Shown: in pieces, positions 13,772 through 30,792 of the stretch | Layout: each line of letters starts with the position of its first letter | Position numbering within the stretch: the first letter of the stretch is position 1 | IMG/VR virus record: IMGVR_UViG_2713896908_000007 | Strand: one strand, 5' to 3' | Source: a virus | Lineage: Duplodnaviria; Heunggongvirae; Uroviricota; Caudoviricetes | DNA length: 64,000 nt | Translations under genes and position numbers: made by a program | The notes under the pieces: model-generated | What the model was told of the DNA's origin: nothing | Database searches by the model: none | The model's input: the letters and a program-made list of their open reading frames with translations, nothing else

Positions 13772-14920
13772 TTATCCAAACCAATTTTCTAGAACATTTT
13801 CAAATTTATGGGTAACTTGCCACCATAAATAGTTCTCTAATACATATTTCTTTCCGTTATTTGCAATTTGTTCTAATTTTTCGGAGTGTAATGTTTCATA
13901 TATATCACTAGCTAAACTTTCTGGCAACATTGGTTCATTTATATGAAATCCTGTATGGTTATTTTTTACAAATTCAACCATTCCACCTCGAGTGCTAACT
14001 AAAACGGGTTTTCCTGCCCCCATAGCTTCTATAGCAACCATGCAGAACGGTTCTTGAAACTGAGATGGGATTACAACTAGATCGGCTATAGGATAGTAAC
14101 GGTACATATCATCTGGTTTTACCCCGCCAACAAGATGACAACGCGAACCAATAGTTCCAGCAAGTTCCCTTACTTGTTTTTGATATGCAGCTTTTTCTCC
14201 TTTATCTTTATTATTGTAGTCACCAACAACTACAAGTTCTATATTGTCACATGATTTTATCAATTTTTTAAACGCTTGTAATAGTAAAACAGTCCCTTTT
14301 TCAGGGGAGATCCTTCCCGCATAAAAGATAACTTTTTTCTCAGAGGGAATGCCTAAATCTTGTTTTGTTAGCGGGGGTAGCCCTTTATCTAGATTGTGTG
14401 GTTCTGTACCATTAGGAACTATACAAATTTCAGCGTCAGGAAGATGTTTTTCATAAAAATCCTTTAAATACTGACTTGGAACAAGCATTTTCACATTGCT
14501 ATCTAGCCCTTTCGGTGTAAAGGCATTATGCATATGCATTATCATTTTTGCGTCAGGAGCTTTCTCTCTAATTTGACGATAAAGTTTCATGCTGTTATGA
14601 ACAATAATAATGCTATCGTTTGTGATATTGAAATCTTTAGCAATGTTTAACACTCGTTGTGAATATGGAATAGGATCTATTCTGCTCCATTTTTGAAATA
14701 TCCGTTTATAAAGACGGCTAAACCCTATTCTATGGATAGAGCATCGCTCATTAACAATATCTTTTTCTGAGAAACCATCCTCTCGAATGCATGCTATACG
14801 ATTTGGTATTCTTGTTCTCTTTGCGACTTGATATATCCAAGTTTCAACAGCTGCTGCGCCACGAGGTGGTATTGAAAATATTGGTGTAACTGTAAATATT
14901 AATTTGTCAATCATGAGCAA
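13772..14920 (-). CDS. GT4-family (GT-B) glycosyltransferase
   Basis: 382-aa ORF; C-terminal EX7E-type motif region …VSTRGGMVEFVKNNHTGFHINEP…; AT-rich codon usage; TTG start overlapping upstream gene. Confidence 0.8.
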   Translation of the reverse strand: MLMIDKLIFTVTPIFSIPPRGAAAVETWIYQVAKRTRIPNRIACIREDGFSEKDIVNERCSIHRIGFSRLYKRIFQKWSRIDPIPYSQRVLNIAKDFNITNDSIIIVHNSMKLYRQIREKAPDAKMIMHMHNAFTPKGLDSNVKMLVPSQYLKDFYEKHLPDAEICIVPNGTEPHNLDKGLPPLTKQDLGIPSEKKVIFYAGRISPEKGTVLLLQAFKKLIKSCDNIELVVVGDYNNKDKGEKAAYQKQVRELAGTIGSRCHLVGGVKPDDMYRYYPIADLVVIPSQFQEPFCMVAIEAMGAGKPVLVSTRGGMVEFVKNNHTGFHINEPMLPESLASDIYETLHSEKLEQIANNGKKYVLENYLWWQVTHKFENVLENWFG

Positions 14921-15458
14921 CTATCCTCTTATAATCTTTTTCCTTTAAATGTTTTTTTGGGGTTGCGGGAGAGCCCGCATACATTGTATTAGCAGGAACA
15001 TCAGTATTTACAACGCTATTTGCAGCTATAACACTATTGTCTCCTATTTTTACACCTGGTAGCACAGTTGTATTTGCCCCAATCCAAACATTACGGCCTA
15101 TTTTTATTGGAGCGCAAATTGTTTCTTTGGGACGTTTGCTTGGTGTTAGTGGATGCGTGACAGTTGTTAATACAACGTTGGGGCCAATGGCAGAGTTACA
15201 TCCAATATCTATTGTTTTTGCATCGAGAAAAACACAATTTGCGTTAATGAAGACCTTTTTATCAATAATTATATTGCCATTCTCAAAATAAAATGGAGCT
15301 GTTATTGTTGAGTCTTCACTTACTTTAACTCCTGTTTTTTTTAATGTGATTAATTTTTTTCTTTTTGAGATCAAGGTATAATTAAATATATGTCTTGCTT
15401 TCTTTGCTTTCTTTTTTTGAAAAATTATATAGAAATAATATGTTAGCAAATCAAACAT
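14907..15458 (-). CDS. hexapeptide-repeat (LbH) sugar O-acetyltransferase (maltose/galactoside acetyltransferase family)
   Basis: …IGCNSAIGPNVVLTTVTHPL…IGRNVWIGANTTVLPGVKIGDNSVIAANSVV… hexapeptide repeats; Lys-rich N-terminus encoded by A7-A8 tracts. Confidence 0.8.
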   Translation of the reverse strand: MFDLLTYYFYIIFQKKKAKKARHIFNYTLISKRKKLITLKKTGVKVSEDSTITAPFYFENGNIIIDKKVFINANCVFLDAKTIDIGCNSAIGPNVVLTTVTHPLTPSKRPKETICAPIKIGRNVWIGANTTVLPGVKIGDNSVIAANSVVNTDVPANTMYAGSPATPKKHLKEKDYKRIVAHD

Positions 15459-15482
15459 TGTTGTTTTACTTCCATTTAAAAT

Positions 15483-15812
15483 TTAACTATCAAATGTGGC
15501 TCCTATTTCTCGCATTTTGTTAAGTATGATGTTTATTTCATTGCTACCGAGAGAAGTTTGGGCAGCTATGAAAAAAAGTATGTGCAATGACATAGATCTG
15601 TTATTTTCTTTGTTTATATATTTTCTCCACTGGCTATCGCTGCTGACCCCGGCTAGTTCTGCCATTTGATTCCCTGTATACCCAAGCGTTTCTTTGAATT
15701 GACGCAAATCTTGTGATTTGGGGGGGGTGTAGTTGTTTATTAACCTCATATTAAACCCATTATTGGTAAGCTTTCGTTGGTGTAATGGTAGCACCAATGG
15801 GGCTGCTGTCAA
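15483..15812 (-). CDS. small helix-turn-helix protein (putative regulator of the downstream acetyltransferase/GT genes)
   Basis: 109-aa ORF with TTG start (possible internal ATG start giving 88 aa); …LRQFKETLGYTGNQMAELAGVSSDSQWRKY… resembles an XRE-type HTH; AT-rich. Confidence 0.45.
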   Translation of the reverse strand: MTAAPLVLPLHQRKLTNNGFNMRLINNYTPPKSQDLRQFKETLGYTGNQMAELAGVSSDSQWRKYINKENNRSMSLHILFFIAAQTSLGSNEINIILNKMREIGATFDS

Positions 15813-15892
15813 GCGTCTTTTCTTTATAAATATAGGGAGCCATCAAAATCTGACATTAATTATCTATCGAAATATTTTGAATGACTGGTGAG

Positions 15893-15911
15893 AAGTTACT
15901 TTGCATACCAT
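15893..15911 (+). promoter_or_regulatory. candidate late promoter (AAGTTACTT-N4-TACCAT) for lydA-darA operon
   Basis: 9-bp inverted repeat plus -10-like hexamer about 30 nt upstream of the GTG start, which has an AGGAGG RBS. Confidence 0.5.
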
Positions 15912-15939
15912 TACCTCCTGACAACGTAGGAGGGAACTT

Positions 15940-16269
15940 GTGCTTGACACACAGGAATTAGCTCCAGTTGCTATTGCGCTCCTGCTTTCAGTAATTGGTG
16001 GGATAGGCACGTTCCTGATGGATGTCCGAGACGGTCGCCAGTCTGGCAATTTGTTGGGATTGGTTACGGAGATCTTTGTTGCAGTGACAGCTGGCGCGGT
16101 GGCGTACCTATTGGGGCAACACGAGGGCTGGGAGTTATCAATTACGTACTTAATGGTAACGATAGCCAGCAATAACGGTCATGAGGTGATTTCAGGGATG
16201 AAACGAGTGAATATCGATAGCATTCTGAATGTTCTTACAAGTTTGGTGAAAAAGGGAGGCGGGAAATGA
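15940..16269 (+). CDS. lydA: holin-like membrane protein (P1 LydA-like)
   Basis: 109-aa ORF, GTG start with AGGAGG RBS; three hydrophobic segments; position at head of the darA-type operon. Confidence 0.55.
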   Translation: MLDTQELAPVAIALLLSVIGGIGTFLMDVRDGRQSGNLLGLVTEIFVAVTAGAVAYLLGQHEGWELSITYLMVTIASNNGHEVISGMKRVNIDSILNVLTSLVKKGGGK

Positions 16270-16709
16270 TTGGCTGGGGTGTATGCGCTCTTGCGGCAGC
16301 CTTAGCTGATCGCTATTTGCTAAAACGCAAGGACATCACGAATTTAGAGCTTGGTGATGTGGAAATTAAACCGGGATTTATCCGGGTGCCGTTCAAATAT
16401 CGGTCTAAATTCCCGTTTTTGCGCGGTGCAACGGTCAGATATTGGCTCCGTGATGTTCAGAAGCCGACGACAGTGATTGAAGGCGAACAACGTTGCCTGA
16501 CGTCGGCTGAACAGGGCGAAAACAGTGAATGGTTGTACATACCCACTGAATATATGGGTAAAGGAGAACGACTGTGGCATTTCAACGTCATGGTTACGCA
16601 CGGCGACTCGTTCATTAACCCGTTGTATCGGATTTTCCCTGTTACTCAGCAAATCCGCAGAAGTTACGTAATAAATCTCGCACAGGATGTGTCAGATGAC
16701 GAAAAATAA
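16266..16709 (+). CDS. hypothetical protein (P1 LydB-like antiholin by position)
   Basis: 147-aa ORF, ATGA-coupled to the holin-like gene. Confidence 0.45.
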   Translation: MIGWGVCALAAALADRYLLKRKDITNLELGDVEIKPGFIRVPFKYRSKFPFLRGATVRYWLRDVQKPTTVIEGEQRCLTSAEQGENSEWLYIPTEYMGKGERLWHFNVMVTHGDSFINPLYRIFPVTQQIRRSYVINLAQDVSDDEK

Positions 16710-17298
16710 GTATGCAACGGTCGATTTTGACCAGGTTAATGAAAAGGGGCTTAAATCCCTTATCACGGCGATCAATAAAACCGGTGTTACGGTAATTGAG
16801 GTTGACTCCAGCAACCGCGCAACTACGAAAGATGGCGTTAAAGTTAAAACCGCAAAGTTGGTTCTTAACGACGGACAAATTCTTGCTATACAGGTAAATG
16901 ATACTGGCGATATATCGTCTGTGAAACTGAATGGAAAAGCTATTCCTAATGCTCAATCGCCAGATATCAAGACGCTTGGTACCGTCATGGGGCAAGCGGC
17001 CCACAAAAACGCTGCAAAATTCCAGAAATCACTGATCGCCAAAGCTAAACGTGTTGCCAATCCGGTAGACAAGAAACCGGCAGTTAAATCCAACTTTCAG
17101 CGCCTGCAAGAGGCAAAACAGCGGAATGCTCAGGTGGTTGCCGCTTATAAATCCGCGCAGAACTCGGTGTCTTTCAATCAACAGCAGATCACTGATTTGC
17201 GGGCGAAGCTGGATAAGGAGACAGGTCGACTCAATAACGAAAAGGCCAGGAATGGCGAACTCAAACGCCGTCTTAAGCAACTGAAAGCAGGAAATTAA
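16687..17298 (+). CDS. coiled-coil protein (P1 Hdf-like by position)
   Basis: 203-aa ORF (alternative ATG at 16696); local similarity to a segment of the downstream DarA-like protein (…KNAAKFQK… vs …KNSAKFQRAQKKKK…). Confidence 0.45.
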   Translation: MCQMTKNKYATVDFDQVNEKGLKSLITAINKTGVTVIEVDSSNRATTKDGVKVKTAKLVLNDGQILAIQVNDTGDISSVKLNGKAIPNAQSPDIKTLGTVMGQAAHKNAAKFQKSLIAKAKRVANPVDKKPAVKSNFQRLQEAKQRNAQVVAAYKSAQNSVSFNQQQITDLRAKLDKETGRLNNEKARNGELKRRLKQLKAGN

Positions 17299-17299
17299 C

Positions 17300-19219
17300 A
17301 TGGAACAGTTCAATATCAATAAAGGGGTGACGATCAAACCTGGGCTTGACGTGCTTCCCCCGCCAGTGACTGATGATGAATATCGCGCATTAATGGCCGG
17401 TGAGGACCGCTATCTGATGACGGAATCCAACACCCTGGAGGAAATCGAGGCTACGTTCTTCTATGACAAGCCGATCCACTGGTGTGCTACGGATTTACTG
17501 GAGGCGATTAGTTCTACTCGTTTGCAGTTACACCGGACCATGCAGGCATTTGTCCGGGCATTGAACCAGAAGCTGAATGGTACCGGAATCTCTGCGGGGA
17601 GTGATAAAACGGGGGATGTGGCCCAGAGCGGCGCGCGCGCGATCGGCGGCGCTGAAATTGGTCGGGCACGTAACGTTAACGGGCTGCCGGTCCTGCCAGC
17701 CATTATTCCGCTCAGTGATGGTCAGACTATCAGCATTTTGTTTCATAGCCCGACAGCGGAAAACCGGATCACCAATAGCGATACGCTGGTTGCTTTCCAG
17801 TTCTTACTGAATAAAAAAGACGTTACTCACACCGTTGCTCCGATGAGTGGACGTGATATGACGCTGGCGCAGGTCACCATGAAACTTGCCAACCTTGCAG
17901 AGAAAAACTCGGCAAAATTCCAGCGTGCGCAGAAGAAGAAAAAAGCCCTGGTTGATGAAATAACCCAACTACAGGCTGACAGTGACCAGAAAGAGGATGC
18001 CATGAGCGACCTCGCGGATCAGGTGGCAGCGGTAGAAGGCCAGAAGGCAGATCTGGAGCAGAAAATTAACGCGGTTGCTTCGGAAGCGGATTCTCTTTAT
18101 CAAGAAAATGAGCGTTTGCAGGCGGAGATTGAGCAGCTCAATCGCACTGGTGGGCGCGATACCATTGCTCCAACGGGGATGACTGGTGGGCACTCTCGCG
18201 CGCTGACGGATCGCCTTGCCAGTATCAAAAATCGTATGCATATGGACGGGGAAGCGACGCTCAGTAATGGTGCATCAATGAAGCAATTCATTGGGGACGG
18301 CAAAGGGTATGTCCAGTTAACCGATCCGGATGGCAGCGTGTACATGATCAAGGCTAAATCCATACAGGGTGTGGACATGGCAGATGCGATCGGCAAGCTG
18401 TTTAAAGCCTATAAAGCGGGTAACGTATCGGAATATCTGGTCCAACCAGAAGAGCCTAAACCGGAAAACGTCGAACCTGAACCAGCGGAAGATACCGGTA
18501 GCTCTTCGCCTGAACCAGAAGTCTCTGTAGGTGCATATCGATATGCCCTGCAAATGCGTCCGGCGGCCCCAGGCGCGATACCTGAAGGTAACAAAGCAAT
18601 TCTGCCGTGCCCTGATGAAGGTGACCCGTATTATGAATATGCGCGCTACGGCATTGTTACTTACGATACCCCGCTTTCTGATCAGCAAATGAGTGAGTAC
18701 GACCTGAAGTTATTGCCTCGCGAGGATTCTTTCGACTTCCTGGCGAAGACACTTACTAATGGTCCGTTTGGCAAATATGCACAAAAAGCTCTGGAGCTGG
18801 CCACCAGCTCACCAGACGAGTTCCGCGTAATGCTGAAAACTCAGTTTCAAAAAACTTTCCCCAATATTGCGTTTCCGGGGGGCGCAGGCACCGAGAAAAT
18901 GGTGCAGAGCATGATCAATGCATTGCAGGCCGAAGTCGGTGAGATTACTCAACCAGAATCGGCCCCGGAACAGCATGATGAAAAGGTTAGCGAAGCAGAT
19001 GCAGAGGCTAATAAAGCCATTGAATATCTCAATAACGTGATGGATATGCAAAGCACTGACATGGCGGAGATCCGCAACGCCAGGGGCAATGTCAGGGAAG
19101 CGATTGCTGCCCTTCAGGCTGCCGGACGTTTTGATGAAAACGAAGAGCTGGTTAACGGCGCAGCTCGCCACCTGGCTGATCTGCTGGTAGCAATCCAGAA
19201 AGCGGGAGGAGCGGCATGA
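17300..19219 (+). CDS. darA: antirestriction/head internal protein (P1 DarA-like)
   Basis: 639-aa ORF in the operon position and size expected for DarA; central coiled-coil; assignment by synteny from memory. Confidence 0.55.
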   Translation: MEQFNINKGVTIKPGLDVLPPPVTDDEYRALMAGEDRYLMTESNTLEEIEATFFYDKPIHWCATDLLEAISSTRLQLHRTMQAFVRALNQKLNGTGISAGSDKTGDVAQSGARAIGGAEIGRARNVNGLPVLPAIIPLSDGQTISILFHSPTAENRITNSDTLVAFQFLLNKKDVTHTVAPMSGRDMTLAQVTMKLANLAEKNSAKFQRAQKKKKALVDEITQLQADSDQKEDAMSDLADQVAAVEGQKADLEQKINAVASEADSLYQENERLQAEIEQLNRTGGRDTIAPTGMTGGHSRALTDRLASIKNRMHMDGEATLSNGASMKQFIGDGKGYVQLTDPDGSVYMIKAKSIQGVDMADAIGKLFKAYKAGNVSEYLVQPEEPKPENVEPEPAEDTGSSSPEPEVSVGAYRYALQMRPAAPGAIPEGNKAILPCPDEGDPYYEYARYGIVTYDTPLSDQQMSEYDLKLLPREDSFDFLAKTLTNGPFGKYAQKALELATSSPDEFRVMLKTQFQKTFPNIAFPGGAGTEKMVQSMINALQAEVGEITQPESAPEQHDEKVSEADAEANKAIEYLNNVMDMQSTDMAEIRNARGNVREAIAALQAAGRFDENEELVNGAARHLADLLVAIQKAGGAA

Positions 19220-19602
19220 CACTATCAGCTATTGAGTTAATGGACCTCAGCGATAAGTTGGATGCTCTGATGTCCAAAGCTGCTACCGCGAGTGGCATGG
19301 AGTTGCTGGATATCAGCGATGAAATTGACCAGATCATGCAACAGATGGGGTACGGCGCGTCCGGCGGCGGTAGTGGCGAGGAAAAACAACCTTCAGTACA
19401 TGATGGTGTGCCAAAACTGGTTGCTGATTTCCTGGCTGATAAATTCGTCGATCAGAGCACCGATGCATTTATCGGCACCTTGCAGGACTTGAGTCAATAT
19501 GTTGGCACATACATCGACCTGGACCAGGTTAAACAGCACACGGCGGCATGGATAGCCGCCAACATTAAAGAGGCTTCAGGTGTTCGCAGCAACTCTACAT
19601 GA
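19216..19602 (+). CDS. hypothetical protein (P1 DdrA-like by position)
   Basis: 128-aa ORF, ATGA-coupled to the DarA-like gene. Confidence 0.45.
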   Translation: MTLSAIELMDLSDKLDALMSKAATASGMELLDISDEIDQIMQQMGYGASGGGSGEEKQPSVHDGVPKLVADFLADKFVDQSTDAFIGTLQDLSQYVGTYIDLDQVKQHTAAWIAANIKEASGVRSNST

Positions 19603-19663
19603 GCTGTAGTTTTCGAAGATTCTCACAAGTTCATTTCGCGTAGGTATTTATTTAACCATTAAA

Positions 19664-19701
19664 GCCGAATGCGGCGGGCACACCACATTCGGCAATTTTT
19701 T
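19664..19701 (+). terminator. rho-independent terminator of lydA-darA operon
   Basis: Stem gccgaatg/cattcggc followed by aatttttt. Confidence 0.6.
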
Positions 19702-19735
19702 GAAAACTATCAATGAATTAAATAATCAGAGGGGC

Positions 19736-20839
19736 TTATTCCCACTCTTGCAGGAAACGCTGACCGTACTGGTCGGCTACCAGCAGTGCAGCATAAACCT
19801 GATCTGGCGTTGCGCCGCCAGGCATGTTGTGGATGGTTTCACCTTCTGCACATGCCGCTTCTGCGACAATCCGCATTTTCGCCGGGATATCTTCTTTAAT
19901 ATCCAGTTGTGCCAGGGTAATTGGCAGGCCGACAGCATGGCACAGCGCAGCTACGGTTTCGATTTCTTCAACTGGTGCGTTTTCCAGAACCAGTTGCGTC
20001 AGCGTACCGAATGCCACTTTCTCACCGTGATAATAGTGATGCGCATCCGGAATGGCCGTCAGGCCATTGTGCACCGCGTGCGCCGCCGCCAGGCCGCCGC
20101 TTTCAAAGCCCACGCCGCTCAAATAGGTGTTAGCTTCAATCACACGTTCCAGCGCCGGAGTCACCACATGCTGTTCAGCGGCAAGCATCGCTTTTTCGCC
20201 TTCTTCCAGCAGGGTGTTGTAGCACAGTTCAGCCAGAGCCAGTGCTGCCTGAGTACATTTACCGCCCGCCATCGTGGTTGCGCCGCTGCGGGAACAGGCA
20301 CGTGCTTCAAACCAGGTTGCCAACGCATCGCCAATACCCGCCGCTAACAGACGTGCAGGTGCGCCAGCAACAATTTTGGTATCCACAATGACGCGTTCCG
20401 GGTTGTTTGGCAGCATCAGATAACGTTCAAACTCACCATCATCGGTGTAGATAACGGAAAGGGCGCTGCAAGGTGCGTCGGTTGAGGCAATGGTTGGGGC
20501 AACTGCAACAGGAACGCCCATAAAGTGTGCCAGTGCTTTGGCTGTATCGAGGGTTTTACCTCCGCCGATTCCCAGAATTGCGCTACACTGAGCATTCTCT
20601 GCAATACCCCGCAGACGATCGATTTCATTTTGCGAACATTCACCGCCGAACGGGGCAATTTCTACCTCTATTCCAGCATCTTTAAAACTTTTCTCAATAT
20701 TAGTTTGAGCAAAACCTAACACAAATTTGTCACCTACCACCAACCAATGTTCTGCCAGCGGTTTCAGGTATTCACCCAGGCGATTAATGACATCTGCGCC
20801 TTGGATGTATTTACCCGGTGATTGAATGATGCGGTCCAT
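19736..20839 (-). CDS. gldA: glycerol dehydrogenase (iron-containing alcohol dehydrogenase family)
   Basis: 367-aa ORF; N-terminus [30 protein letters not shown]… as in enterobacterial Gld[12 protein letters not shown] nucleotide-binding motif; AAAGGAG RBS; host-like GC content. Confidence 0.9.
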
Positions 20840-20910
20840 AATTGCTCCTTTAGAGATGAGTTATGCTAAATGTTTTGTTATTCCCGGATGACCTTCTGTA
20901 TATATCTTAA

Positions 20911-26714: not shown

Positions 26715-27734
26715 TTATTTAAATGGATTGATTGAATTATTAAACGTGATGATGCTTGTCTCACACGGTGCCTGGACGTTAGCCGCTTGCGGAACCTCCT
26801 TAATTTTCTTGGTGACAGGCAAGTTGCGTGCTCCAACTTTGATCAGAGATTCGAAAAGTGTGGCAACGATTTTTGCATCACCAGGTTCTTTGAGGCGGAA
26901 TGCGTCTTTTTGGGCGGCGGAGACGAAGATTGGGAGGTTATCCAGTTCGTCTTGCATCGCTGCCAGCACATCATCGCGGATACCCGCTGTTTCCTCCAGC
27001 AAAGCGATTCGCGCTTCAGCATCTGCGATCTTGGCCATTGCTTCGAGGTGGCGGCCCTGGCTTTCGAGTAGTGCAGTTTCCAGTTCTGCCGTACGCTCTG
27101 TCGCCTCCACCATCATTTCCAGTTCAGCCATTTTGCCGTAATGGGATATAACGGCCTGCACTGACTCGTCGGAGTACCCATGCGCCGCCAGGGACTCTGC
27201 CAGTAAGGATTTAGAATCCGCGCTTTCAAACATTCCGGCGCTGGCAGGATGATCCAGGCTGATATAGTTCGGCGTTGTCACATAATCCACACCATGGAAG
27301 CTGGTGGTTACAGCGATTTTCCCGGACTCACGCCCGCCAGTGGCCCAGCTCCAGCCACCAGCTCGGCTTTCGATCATCGCGGCGACAATTTTACCCGGCT
27401 CTGTGTTAAGAATTTCCTGTGTATGGGTAACGATTCCGTTGTCGTCAACAGATATAGCCACTGTGCGGCACGCTGGAACATTGTCGATTACGACCGGGCG
27501 ACCTTCCACCATGATCACGCTGGTTTCTGGTACTTCCAGTTTGCCGGTCAGCTGTCGGCGACCGTGACCGTAATAGCCGAAAAGCTCACCAAGGCGTAAA
27601 CCTTCCTGAGTTTCCTTGCTTTCAAGCATGGTCTTAACCGCGCTTAATACATACTGTCGCCCGTTCTGGCGACCTTTTCGAGCATTGCTATAGAGACAAA
27701 AGCGGTCAGTGACCGTTTTCAAAACATCAGTCAT
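26715..27734 (-). CDS. pro: head morphogenesis protein (protease/scaffold-like; P1 Pro-like by position)
   Basis: 339-aa ORF with C-terminal coiled-coil; lies in the darB-prt-pro-lyz arrangement remembered for P1. Confidence 0.55.
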   Translation of the reverse strand: MTDVLKTVTDRFCLYSNARKGRQNGRQYVLSAVKTMLESKETQEGLRLGELFGYYGHGRRQLTGKLEVPETSVIMVEGRPVVIDNVPACRTVAISVDDNGIVTHTQEILNTEPGKIVAAMIESRAGGWSWATGGRESGKIAVTTSFHGVDYVTTPNYISLDHPASAGMFESADSKSLLAESLAAHGYSDESVQAVISHYGKMAELEMMVEATERTAELETALLESQGRHLEAMAKIADAEARIALLEETAGIRDDVLAAMQDELDNLPIFVSAAQKDAFRLKEPGDAKIVATLFESLIKVGARNLPVTKKIKEVPQAANVQAPCETSIITFNNSINPFK

Positions 27735-29009
27735 TATATTGCCCTCCAGCTACCTTACCTAATGTCTGTTGGTATATTGGCTTTGATAACATTTTCGTCC
27801 GTGTATTCATTTATATACTCATTAGTTTCAATGTATTATATAGAACATGAAGCGTGCCTATAAATATCGATTCTATCCAACTCCCGAACAAACCGAGCTA
27901 TTAGCCCGGACTTTTGGGTGTGTGCGTTTTGTCTATAACAGCCTCCTTCGCTGGCGTACCGATGCATACTACGCACGCCATGAGAGGGTCGGCTATGCAC
28001 AAGCCAGCGCCAAATTAACGGCACTGAAAAAAGAACCAGAATTCGCTTGGCTGAATGACGTTTCCTGCGTCCCCCTCCAGCAGTCTCTGCGCCACCAACA
28101 AACGGCTTTTGCTAACTTTTTCGCCGGGCGTGCTGCATACCCAGTTTTTAAGAGCAAGCGGCATAAACAGGCCGCAGAACTAACTGCCAGCGCATTTAAA
28201 TACCGTGACGGCAAGCTGTACATGGCAAAGAGCAAAGAGCCGTTAGATGTTCGCTGGAGCCGTCCGTTGCCGTCTGCTCCATCCACTGTCACTATCACCA
28301 GGGATGCTGCCGGACGATATTTTGTATCCTGTCTCTGCGAGTTTGAGCCTGTATCACTGCCGATCACCGTTTCCACGGTCGGCATTGATATTGGTTTAAA
28401 AGATTTGTTCGTCACCGATACCGGTTTCAAAACTGGCAATCCTCGACACAACGCTAAATACGCGAAGCGATTAGCAGTGTTACAGCGCAGATTGAGCAAG
28501 AAACAAAAAGGCTCAAAGAACCGCGCCAAAGCACGTTTAAAGGTTGCCCGCCTCCACGCGAGAATAGTCGATTGTCGGATGGATAACCTGCATAAGTTGT
28601 CCCGCAAACTGATTAACGAAAACCAAGTTGTTTGCGTCGAATCCCTTAAAGTGAAAAACATGATCCGTAACCCGAAGCTGTCTAAAGCAATAGCTGACGC
28701 AGGCTGGAGCGAACTTGTACGCCAACTCCAGTACAAAGGAGAATGGGGTGGACGTAGCATTGTCGCTATCGACCAGTATTTCCCTTCTTCCAAACGTTGC
28801 AGCAGTTGCGGCTTCACCATGCAAAAAATGCCTCTTAATATTCGTAAATGGCACTGCCCGGAATGTGGCGCAGAGCATGATCGTGATATTAACGCGGCCC
28901 GTAATATAAAAGCTGCCGGGCTGGCAGTGTTAGCCCTTGGAGAGTCTGTAATTCCTAAGCCGCTTCATGTGGTTTAGGTCGGACTCTGTGAATTGGGAAT
29001 GTTTGCCGT
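27735..29009 (+). mobile_element. IS200/IS605-family TnpB-only element (boundaries approximate)
   Basis: Single tnpB ORF in opposite orientation between two co-directional head genes; no tnpA; ends not resolved. Confidence 0.4.
27847..28977 (+). CDS. tnpB: TnpB (RuvC-like RNA-guided nuclease of IS200/IS605 family)
   Basis: 376 aa; OrfB N-terminus MKRAYKYRFYPTPEQ…; RuvC motifs GIDIGLKD, ESLKV, CPECGAEHDRDINAARNI with CxxC…CxxC zinc finger. Confidence 0.9.
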   Translation: MKRAYKYRFYPTPEQTELLARTFGCVRFVYNSLLRWRTDAYYARHERVGYAQASAKLTALKKEPEFAWLNDVSCVPLQQSLRHQQTAFANFFAGRAAYPVFKSKRHKQAAELTASAFKYRDGKLYMAKSKEPLDVRWSRPLPSAPSTVTITRDAAGRYFVSCLCEFEPVSLPITVSTVGIDIGLKDLFVTDTGFKTGNPRHNAKYAKRLAVLQRRLSKKQKGSKNRAKARLKVARLHARIVDCRMDNLHKLSRKLINENQVVCVESLKVKNMIRNPKLSKAIADAGWSELVRQLQYKGEWGGRSIVAIDQYFPSSKRCSSCGFTMQKMPLNIRKWHCPECGAEHDRDINAARNIKAAGLAVLALGESVIPKPLHVV

Positions 29010-30740
<1,731 letters not shown>

Positions 30741-30773: not shown

Positions 30774-30792
30774 AATTTAACACTAGTCACTT
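30774..30792 (-). promoter_or_regulatory. candidate late promoter (AAGTGACTA-N4-TAAATT) for prt; near-palindromic, possibly bidirectional
   Basis: Motif in the 75-bp prt/darB divergent intergenic region. Confidence 0.45.

Follow-up and report, generated by a model that had tools for sequence, protein, structure and literature searches.

Among the closest described counterparts of the locus examined here are ISDra2 (PDB 8EXA, 8BF8 and 8H1J) and ISGst, insertion sequences (ISs) in which an omega-RNA spanning the 3′ end of tnpB and the right end (RE) of the element takes its guide from the adjoining flank. The motif that flanks the left end (LE) of such elements, and forms their target, is also the transposon-adjacent motif (TAM) of the nuclease, and TnpB promotes retention of the element (Meers et al., 2023), the role proposed for it being cleavage of the empty site. 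Here we describe a related element in a 64,000 nt stretch of DNA, the IMG/VR virus record IMGVR_UViG_2713896908_000007 (hereafter, the window), which we identify as a P1-like phage-plasmid. The element is a non-autonomous, tnpB-only member of the IS200/IS605 group (IS1341-type) related to ISEc42, and it lies antisense to the head genes pro and prt. Its TnpB shares protein architecture and catalytic residues with those of ISDra2 and ISGst, and the arrangement of omega-RNA, guide and TAM is the same; the activity of this orthologue is a prediction.

The finding of a TnpB element is in itself routine. The interest of the locus lies in its being a natural case in which the transposase-binding LE has decayed and the nuclease and guide RNA are conserved. 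Our overall account, which we consider probable, is that a tnpB-only element was inserted once, that its LE has decayed, that its nuclease and omega-RNA have been kept, that pro is reached by read-through transcription, and that TnpB plays a homing role. In a phage-plasmid that encounters relatives free of the IS, the retention or homing role of TnpB would then be separable from transposition, a proposal that can be tested by P1 genetics.

Extent of the element and consequences for prt and pro

Positions 27500-29300 of the window are 100% identical to Escherichia albertii plasmid pEA16-1_1 (NZ_CP117651.1). The locus comprises the following features, where a slash within a sequence marks the insertion junction, as it does throughout.

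26715-27734, − strand: pro (head processing; 339 aa), intact and separated here from prt by the IS; the two genes of P1 overlap by 8 nt (ATGACTGA)
27730-27734, + strand: target and TAM, 5′-GTCAT (family consensus TTCAT); the P1 empty site reads ...CAGTCAT/TATCGTTTCC
27732-27734, + strand: CAT inside the TAM, the reverse complement of the pro start codon
27735-27846, + strand: LE, degenerate, GC 32%, without a subterminal hairpin; it starts TATATTGCCCTCC, resembling the CAGAATGCCTCC of relatives
27847-28977, + strand: tnpB, 376 aa, antisense between pro and prt; RuvC residues D181/E265/D347, zinc finger C318/C321/C337/C340
28978-29029, + strand: RE, with a hairpin (29000-29008 paired with 29013-29021) and terminal ...GTCAA; conserved in 36 relatives up to GTCAA
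29010-30731, − strand: prt, portal, 573 aa; the final six codons and the stop codon derive from the RE

Comparison with the uninterrupted P1 junction and with ~40 relatives fixed the element at 27735-29029 (1,295 bp). What reads GTCAT/TATCG in P1 reads GTCAT, 1,295 bp of element and TATCG in the window, and when the P1 empty site is set against the window there is neither a target-site duplication nor a pair of terminal inverted repeats. Alignment to P1 leaves a 3 nt ambiguity (P1 junction, ...CAGTCATTAT/CGTTTCC; window left junction, ...GTCATTAT/ATTGCCC; window right junction, ...TTGTCAATAT/CGTTTCC). Because the RE is conserved to ...GGGGAGCAGTCAA in 36 relatives drawn from genomes, plasmids and phages, and these diverge at once beyond this point, the ambiguity is resolved in favour of the ends given above. 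The target flanking the LE in 27 relatives is TTCAT or, less often, TCAT preceded by C, A or G, and, following the reasoning of Meers et al. (2023), the nuclease would therefore have TCAT or TTCAT as its TAM. The insertion point is the 5′ edge of the pro start codon, which lies inside prt, two codons before its stop.

A first-pass annotation of the window had placed the element at 27735-29009, between the two genes. This extent must be corrected to 27735-29029, as the prt stop codon (29010-29012) belongs to the RE and the insertion falls within the last codons of prt; the spacing of tnpB, 112 bp from the start of pro and 32 bp from the stop codon of prt, had been given correctly. The description of pro as protease-like was a loose label for a gene whose P1 counterpart is annotated as a head-processing protein. 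The annotation had also proposed a comparison with the uninterrupted prt-pro junction of P1, and such an empty site is indeed found in P1 and in ~92-95% of P1-like relatives. The ends are thus exact and most relatives are empty, which is not the picture of a tnpB gene present at this site in all relatives without definable ends. As for the view that this is a mobile insertion, an insertion with exact ends, an empty site and no target duplication is what we find; current mobility is not supported, given the decayed LE hairpin and the single site described below.

On the − strand, ...AAC GAT A/AT GAC TGA has become ...AAC GAT A/TT GAC AAT TGT CCG CCA TAA. The C-terminus of Prt, which in P1 is ...KEGNDND (569 aa), is thereby altered from a terminal ND to IDNCPP in a protein of 573 aa. 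The pro ATG (27732-27734), which is the CAT of the TAM, directly adjoins the LE, whose − strand reads GCTGGAGGGCAATATA/ATG. Three further features bear on the expression of pro.

27742-27747, − strand: GGAGGG from the LE, Shine-Dalgarno (SD)-like and visible in the sequence itself, 7 nt before the pro ATG
27835-27864, − strand: putative outward sigma-70-like promoter TTTATA-18-TATAAT, 10/12 matches in a consensus scan, facing pro
30774-30792, − strand: P1 late promoter LPpro (−22 box plus −10), an exact 19 nt match and the sole late promoter found upstream of prt-IS-pro

The corresponding sequence of the P1 empty site is GAGGG, 9 nt upstream of the pro ATG. Separation of pro from the late promoter of prt, which the first-pass annotation had pointed out in asking how pro is transcribed, is borne out by our analysis: LPpro is intact upstream of prt, and a scan of both strands of 27701-29060 gave no late-promoter −22 box at ≤3 mismatches on the − strand of the IS, which is the strand of pro. 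At 28101 the + strand of this region has one weak late-promoter-like site, with three mismatches. The possibility that pro has a late promoter of its own within the IS was dropped, the 19 nt core being found exactly once, upstream of prt, with no box on the − strand. Since the only late promoter, LPpro, lies upstream of prt, transcription of pro most likely requires read-through of the IS, and would run from LPpro antisense to tnpB; the outward sigma-70-like promoter in the LE possibly adds transcription toward pro. Translation of pro would begin from the SD carried by the IS and not by way of coupling to prt. The question of how pro is expressed is thus answered by an IS that adjoins its ATG and donates its SD, and by a sole late promoter that lies upstream of prt.

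TnpB, the omega-RNA and the two ends of the element

The presence of a 376 aa TnpB with RuvC motifs and a zinc finger, antisense to the head genes, as read in the first-pass annotation, is upheld by family matches and by alignment to ISDra2. Pfam families PF12323 (HTH_OrfB_IS605), PF01385 (OrfB_IS605) and PF07282 (Cas12f1-like_TNB) all match above their gathering thresholds. NCBIfam guided_TnpB scores 358 bits (cut-off 100), and IS200_TnpB scores 394 bits, slightly below its 425-bit 'exception' cut-off. Alignment to ISDra2 TnpB (8bf8/8exa/8h1j) covers residues 3-365 (262 bits, E = 7e-77) and sets D181/E265/D347 opposite D191/E278/D361 of ISDra2, and the CxxC...CxxC motif is formed by C318/C321/C337/C340. 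Judged by these features, the protein looks like a functional RNA-guided nuclease. When tnpB is compared with five relatives, the ratio of nonsynonymous to synonymous substitution rates (dN/dS) is 0.085-0.116, or ~0.1 over the long term, and the open reading frame (ORF) is intact in all six carriers examined. Among these six, the variable sites of tnpB are 10 synonymous and 11 nonsynonymous, and there are no changes in the LE and two in the RE.

Two other assignments of the gene were considered and rejected. An IS607-type TnpB element does not fit a score of 171 bits for IS607_TnpB (cut-off 350) and the absence of an adjacent recombinase gene, and a TldR, that is, a nuclease-dead domesticated TnpB, does not fit the intact RuvC triad. 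The label assigned by PGAP is already 'RNA-guided endonuclease TnpB family protein'. No tnpA was found in the window, in agreement with the first reading of the sequence: a tblastn search with an IS200 TnpA probe gave nothing below E = 1, and a scan of all ORFs for an HUH..Y motif gave nothing. There is also no space for a Y1 (HUH) transposase gene between the ends of the element.

Upstream of tnpB, the consensus scan gave one promoter-like site.

27810-27839, + strand: putative tnpB promoter, sigma-70-like TTTATA-18-TATTAT, 9/12 matches

The −10 element stops 7 nt before the tnpB ATG and there is no SD, an arrangement that relatives share (TTGCAT..TAGTAT..8 nt..ATG). With a −10 element so near the ATG and no SD, the tnpB mRNA may be leaderless. 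The promoter-like site (27810-27847 of the window) overlaps the −10 (TATAAT) of the divergent − strand promoter.

The two ends of the element have evolved unevenly. The subterminal LE hairpin, which is the TnpA binding site, is absent, whereas the RE hairpin is present with nine pairs and is homologous to the hairpin of the family, such that the earlier statement that clear terminal hairpins are lacking holds for the LE and fails for the RE (29000-29008 with 29013-29021). Folded as DNA, the LE reaches −1.5 kcal/mol (z = +0.76), compared with −10 to −28.5 kcal/mol and a hairpin of 8-25 bp in five relatives. The LE hairpin of relatives is GC-rich (for example, CCTCGGCC-TTCA-GGCCGGGG) and is often lengthened by GCCTCC/GGAGGC, the slash here separating the two arms. 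The LE of the window keeps the 5′ arm (ACCTTACCT), but its 3′ arm reads TGTTGGTA in place of GGGCGGGG. The start of the LE, including the CCCTCC that provides the SD for pro, is retained. Sequence identities between the window and its relatives were set against those of the relatives' own pairs, matched for equal ORF divergence.

LE: window versus relatives, 55-64%; relatives among themselves, 61-89%
ORF: window versus relatives, 79-86%; relatives among themselves, 81-86%
RE: window versus relatives, 65-75%; relatives among themselves, 81-94%

Both ends are more diverged than the divergence of the ORF predicts. All nine pairs of the RE hairpin have been kept, two of them through changes on both sides (C-G to G-C and C-G to U-A) and three as G.U/G.T wobbles, a pattern that fits selection at the level of RNA. 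Our reading of these sequences is that the TnpA-binding LE is probably dead, while the omega-RNA, tnpB and the SD appear to stay under selection. As the LE hairpin has decayed and the lineage occupies one site only, 'immobilised insertion' is a better description than 'currently mobile', and the element is probably immobilised.

An omega-RNA was expected from the first reading at the 3′ end of tnpB, and a predicted RNA with its guide template could be delimited there.

28900-29029, + strand: omega-RNA scaffold, made up of the final 78 nt of tnpB and the RE; helices at 28912-28928, 28934-28997 (three nested stems) and 29000-29021
29030-29045, + strand: flank with the guide template TATCGTTTCCCTCTTT, which with TCAT before it equals the empty prt/pro junction of IS-free P1

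The last 240 nt of the element, up to the GTCAA end, were aligned for the window and 36 relatives (37 sequences), and a common structure was derived with RNAalifold. This structure consists of a hairpin in the stretch encoding IKAAGLAV, a stem of three tiers over the tnpB stop codon, and the RE hairpin. Paired cells amount to 95.7%, compared with 36-50% when the partners are slid by 1-3 columns. Double-sided changes occur in 21 of the 47 pairs, and the number of double-sided cells is 110, compared with 22.5 ± 3.9 in shuffles (0 of 500 shuffles reach 110). A covariance model built on the 36 relatives only, with the window excluded (last 130 nt, 32 pairs), matches 28900-29029 on the + strand over its full length (127.1 bits, E = 1e-34), with 30 of 32 pairs standard. 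Taken alone, the window RNA has a minimum free energy z score of −3.5. An Rfam search (E ≤ 1) over 27000-30000 gave no match, because no curated omega-RNA family covers this TnpB clade. The covariation and the model built without the window sequence thus bear out the prediction of an omega-RNA at this position. The adjoining flank at 29030-29045 would serve as its guide, and the sole near match to TAM plus guide in the window is the element's own junction, in which TCAA replaces TCAT.

Distribution, proposed role and alternatives

The pro-LE junction is present in 39 of the 489 complete E. coli genomes that contain the 5′ end of a P1-like pro, and 39 is also the number of copies of ≥95% identity found in E. 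coli with the element alone. The other E. coli matches are relatives of ~81% identity, nearly all of them a single chromosomal copy between ybhB and bioA in B2 strains such as CFT073. In PLSDB the 112 nt LE is present in 25 plasmids (E. coli, E. albertii and E. fergusonii) and is 100% identical in all, and a 'distant' blastn search of this collection revealed neither a diverged relative of the LE nor a second site. An exact 31-mer scan for the LE gave three carriers in IMG/VR, with the same junction, versus 87 empty sites, and no copy in metagenome contigs. The frequency of the IS is ~5-8% of P1-like plasmids, and no copy of the lineage was found at another site in the E. coli genomes, PLSDB, IMG/VR or metagenomes. 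The lineage is therefore known from a single insertion event only.

Six carriers were compared. The IS differs by 0-9 nt of 1,295 (0-0.7%) in five of these and by 14-19 nt (1.1-1.5%) in the sixth, and divergence in the flanks, taken over 1,020 nt of pro and 1,702 nt of prt, is 1.0-1.8%. Plasmids with the IS were considered as a candidate tight clade, and the flanks show that they are not one, for carriers are often nearer to IS-free plasmids than to each other and haplotypes are shared. Within the prt flank, for instance, 10 positions separate the E. fergusonii carrier from the IS-free YZLc4 and 23 separate it from the window, and haplotypes already differ ~100 nt from either junction. The IS is thus carried on recombining mosaic backbones, which is compatible with TnpB-driven homing without demonstrating it.

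Several carriers have peculiarities of their own. The match to the IS is split in CP100027.1 and NZ_CP142045.1; in the latter the LE and the RE junction are ~5.4 kb apart, and tnpB is therefore apparently interrupted by a further insertion of ~4 kb. The phage record vB_EcoM-673R5 (ON470615.2) carries the same insertion, with prt and darB split and tnpB annotated from an internal start; because of its many indels it looks like a low-accuracy assembly, and it was left out of the counts of single-nucleotide polymorphisms. In the carrier NZ_CP027133.1 an IS200C tnpA (Y1 transposase) lies between pro and lydD, at 115 nt from the 3′ end of pro; it is a possible source of TnpA in trans in some hosts.

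We propose that the element was inserted once into the prt/pro overlap, 3′ of TCAT on the + strand. With the LE hairpin that TnpA binds gone, the transposase would no longer be able to excise or move it. TnpB and its omega-RNA (guide TATCGTTTCCCTCTTT, TAM TCAT) would still work as in ISDra2 and ISGst, cutting the IS-free junction in sister or co-resident P1 genomes, after which recombinational repair would restore the IS or copy it. Homing or retention of this kind would explain both the purifying selection on the gene and its RNA and the occurrence of the IS on diverged backbones. The proposal draws on sequence comparison, with the retention role taken from Meers et al. (2023).

A number of observations weigh against this account. 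The consensus scan gives five weak terminator-like sites on the − strand inside the IS, in the path of the proposed read-through. The 11 nonsynonymous and 10 synonymous variable sites within the lineage correspond by our estimate to a dN/dS of ~0.35, a value that is based on few sites and fits relaxed selection. Mosaic flanks can be obtained by ordinary recombination among P1-like plasmids, with no need of a nuclease. The carriers are not known to form infectious particles, and vB_EcoM-673R5 is a phage record defined in silico. Finally, the match is split in the two plasmids named above, where tnpB is possibly interrupted.

A bolder version of the account, which we regard as unlikely but worth stating, is that the immobilised TnpB/omega-RNA cassette operates among P1-like phage-plasmids as a site-specific gene drive or as an exclusion nuclease. 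The IS-free junction TCAT plus TATCGTTTCCCTCTTT of co-infecting relatives would be cut and the IS copied in by recombination, TCTCGTTT and TACTGTTT would be escape alleles, and the ends of the family would be adapted to operons, the TAM being a start codon (ATGA(A)), the LE carrying an SD and the TCAA of the RE giving a TGA stop. Among IS-free IMG/VR contigs the empty site reads TCAT/TATCGTTT in 56, TCAT/TCTCGTTT in 22 and TCAT/TACTGTTT in two (24 of 80 variant). The polymorphism falls at guide positions +2 to +4, and one E. coli plasmid also has its TAM changed to CCAT. No other common variant was found in the free positions −4 to +8 or +25 to +100, the nearest being at −48 and +101, in a search whose pattern fixed the intervening bases. 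The excess in the TAM and guide seed is weak (three variable sites in 12 free positions versus 0.6 expected; Poisson p ~0.03 by our calculation) and is confounded by relaxed constraint on the C-terminal tail of Prt, for which reason we regard it as no more than a lead. The variants at +2 to +4 may represent escape alleles, or may simply reflect a relaxed Prt tail.

Returning to the account of an immobilised element with a homing role, the best-surviving alternative is that the IS is an inert passenger, tolerated as one of its ends happens to restore the ribosome binding site of pro, with a tnpB and omega-RNA too young to have decayed. Carrier copies ≤0.7% apart in five of six carriers do indicate a young lineage, the 11:10 ratio of substitutions is what such a passenger would show, and the IS is found in only 5-8% of P1-like elements. 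Decay has not, however, been uniform, for the LE has fallen to 32% GC and lost its hairpin, yet the ORF has a dN/dS of ~0.1 and the RE hairpin has 9/9 pairs maintained through double-sided changes; ends and ORF evolving so differently are not what a passive load would give, unless this unevenness pre-dates the insertion in P1, as it may. We consider the passenger explanation distinctly unlikely.

Less probable again is a currently mobile IS for which TnpA is supplied in trans, for instance by IS200-type elements of the host or of the plasmid. Mobilisation in trans is generally assumed for IS1341-type elements that have tnpB only, the IS200C tnpA of one carrier plasmid lies close by, and some genomes contain several copies of related elements (five loci in Serratia proteamaculans CBSDS_009, for example). 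Against these points, the LE hairpin is absent, all copies of the lineage in E. coli genomes, PLSDB, IMG/VR and phage records share one junction, the window itself is without tnpA, and both ends have diverged beyond the expectation from the ORF, which together make this explanation very improbable.

The weakest alternative, an exapted TnpB that serves the phage-plasmid by excluding or degrading IS-free P1 relatives or by regulating late genes in the manner of TldR, would accord with a guide template that matches the junction of IS-free P1 relatives, with the pattern of an immobilised LE beside a conserved nuclease and RNA that domestication predicts, and with the clustering of substitutions at guide +2 to +4 in IS-free contigs (24/80), but we think it very unlikely because the intact RuvC triad is not that of a nuclease-dead TldR-type regulator, most P1-like elements are without the IS, and the variants at +2 to +4 are a weak excess in the last, probably unconstrained codons of prt.

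Comparison with related elements

The window carries another element of the same kind.

48386-49724, + strand: second TnpB-only IS, with tnpB at 48503-49684 (393 aa), between pacA (47108-48301, − strand) and lpa (49721-50173, − strand)

Like the first IS, this element is antisense between co-directional P1 genes, has an omega-RNA of the same family (match to omega-RNA model R1 at 49604-49724; 69 bits, E = 6e-18) and supplies the stop codon of the upstream gene from its RE. Unlike the first, it has an intact LE hairpin (CCCTCGCCC-AATG-CGGGCGGGG), and it sits downstream of lpa and upstream of LPpac, so that no gene is severed from its promoter. Its identity to ISEc46 of phage RCS47 is ~80%, and neither P1 nor vB_EcoM-673R5 carries it. 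The lpa stop codon is given by the terminal GTCAC of the RE, with the last lpa codon changed from ATC to ATG, and at the junction 5 nt (ATCAG) are replaced relative to P1. Elsewhere in the window, a variable region at ~14900-20900 holds, as annotated in the identical plasmid of E. albertii, non-phage cargo that includes gldA (glycerol/propanediol dehydrogenase) and an acetyltransferase related to DapH/DapD/GlmU.

A pattern common to the family was noticed among 27 loci with a TCAT-type target while the ends were being defined. In 21 of the 27 loci an antisense ORF of ≥100 codons begins at the ATG of the TAM, and in 17 a native SD lies 4-11 nt before this ATG when the empty site is reconstructed. 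The LE provides GGAGG or GAGG 6-8 nt upstream of the ATG in 19 loci; in a Halomonas-type subgroup the elements have an LE without an SD and are still found at start codons, and the SD is therefore not universal in the family. Wherever the gene is annotated, which is so in four cases (pro, ybhB, trbC and Gifsy-1 gpU), its start codon is the CAT of the TAM. At the other end, at least four loci with a long ORF upstream have the TCA of the terminal TCAA as the stop codon of that antisense gene, as in Gifsy-1, where CGA TGA becomes CGT TGA. The family target TTCAT is thus usually the start codon (ATGAA) of an antisense gene, with the ends of the element replacing the SD and the upstream stop, by the counts from these 27 loci. 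Such a pattern would explain how these elements persist inside operons and phage morphogenesis modules. The literature searched yielded no paper that describes it, or that describes TnpB in P1-like phage-plasmids.

Relative to ISDra2, which has TTGAT as its TAM, the element in the window differs in its TAM of TCAT or TTCAT, in having no cognate tnpA and in its decayed LE. Nearer relatives are provided by ISEc42 and by Gifsy-1. GenBank ON470615.2 annotates the element of the window as ISEc42, and the closest non-P1 relatives are 80-86% identical; ISEc42 is probably the single-copy ybhB/bioA element of E. coli B2 strains such as CFT073. The CFT073-type copy resembles the element of the window in being tnpB-only and of the same length class, in its 376 aa TnpB, TTCAT target and RE ending in GTCAA, and in its antisense placement at a start codon (ybhB). 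It differs in an ORF of ~81% nucleotide identity, in ends that remain unaligned in megablast, and in an intact LE hairpin.

The gipA element of prophage Gifsy-1 in Salmonella (AF246666; 'Peyer's patch-specific virulence factor GipA') has 79.7% nucleotide identity and is likewise tnpB-only and antisense between co-directional phage morphogenesis genes, in this case homologues of gpZ and gpU. The CAT of its TAM is the start codon of gpU, and the terminal TCA of its RE is the stop codon of gpZ. Its LE forms a perfect 25 bp hairpin (−28.5 kcal/mol, z = −7.6), far longer than the hairpins of other relatives, whereas the LE in the window has none. The gipA element also occupies a clean ATGA stop/start overlap and leaves the proteins of its neighbours unchanged, whereas insertion into the 8 nt overlap of P1 has replaced the C-terminus of Prt with six residues from the element.

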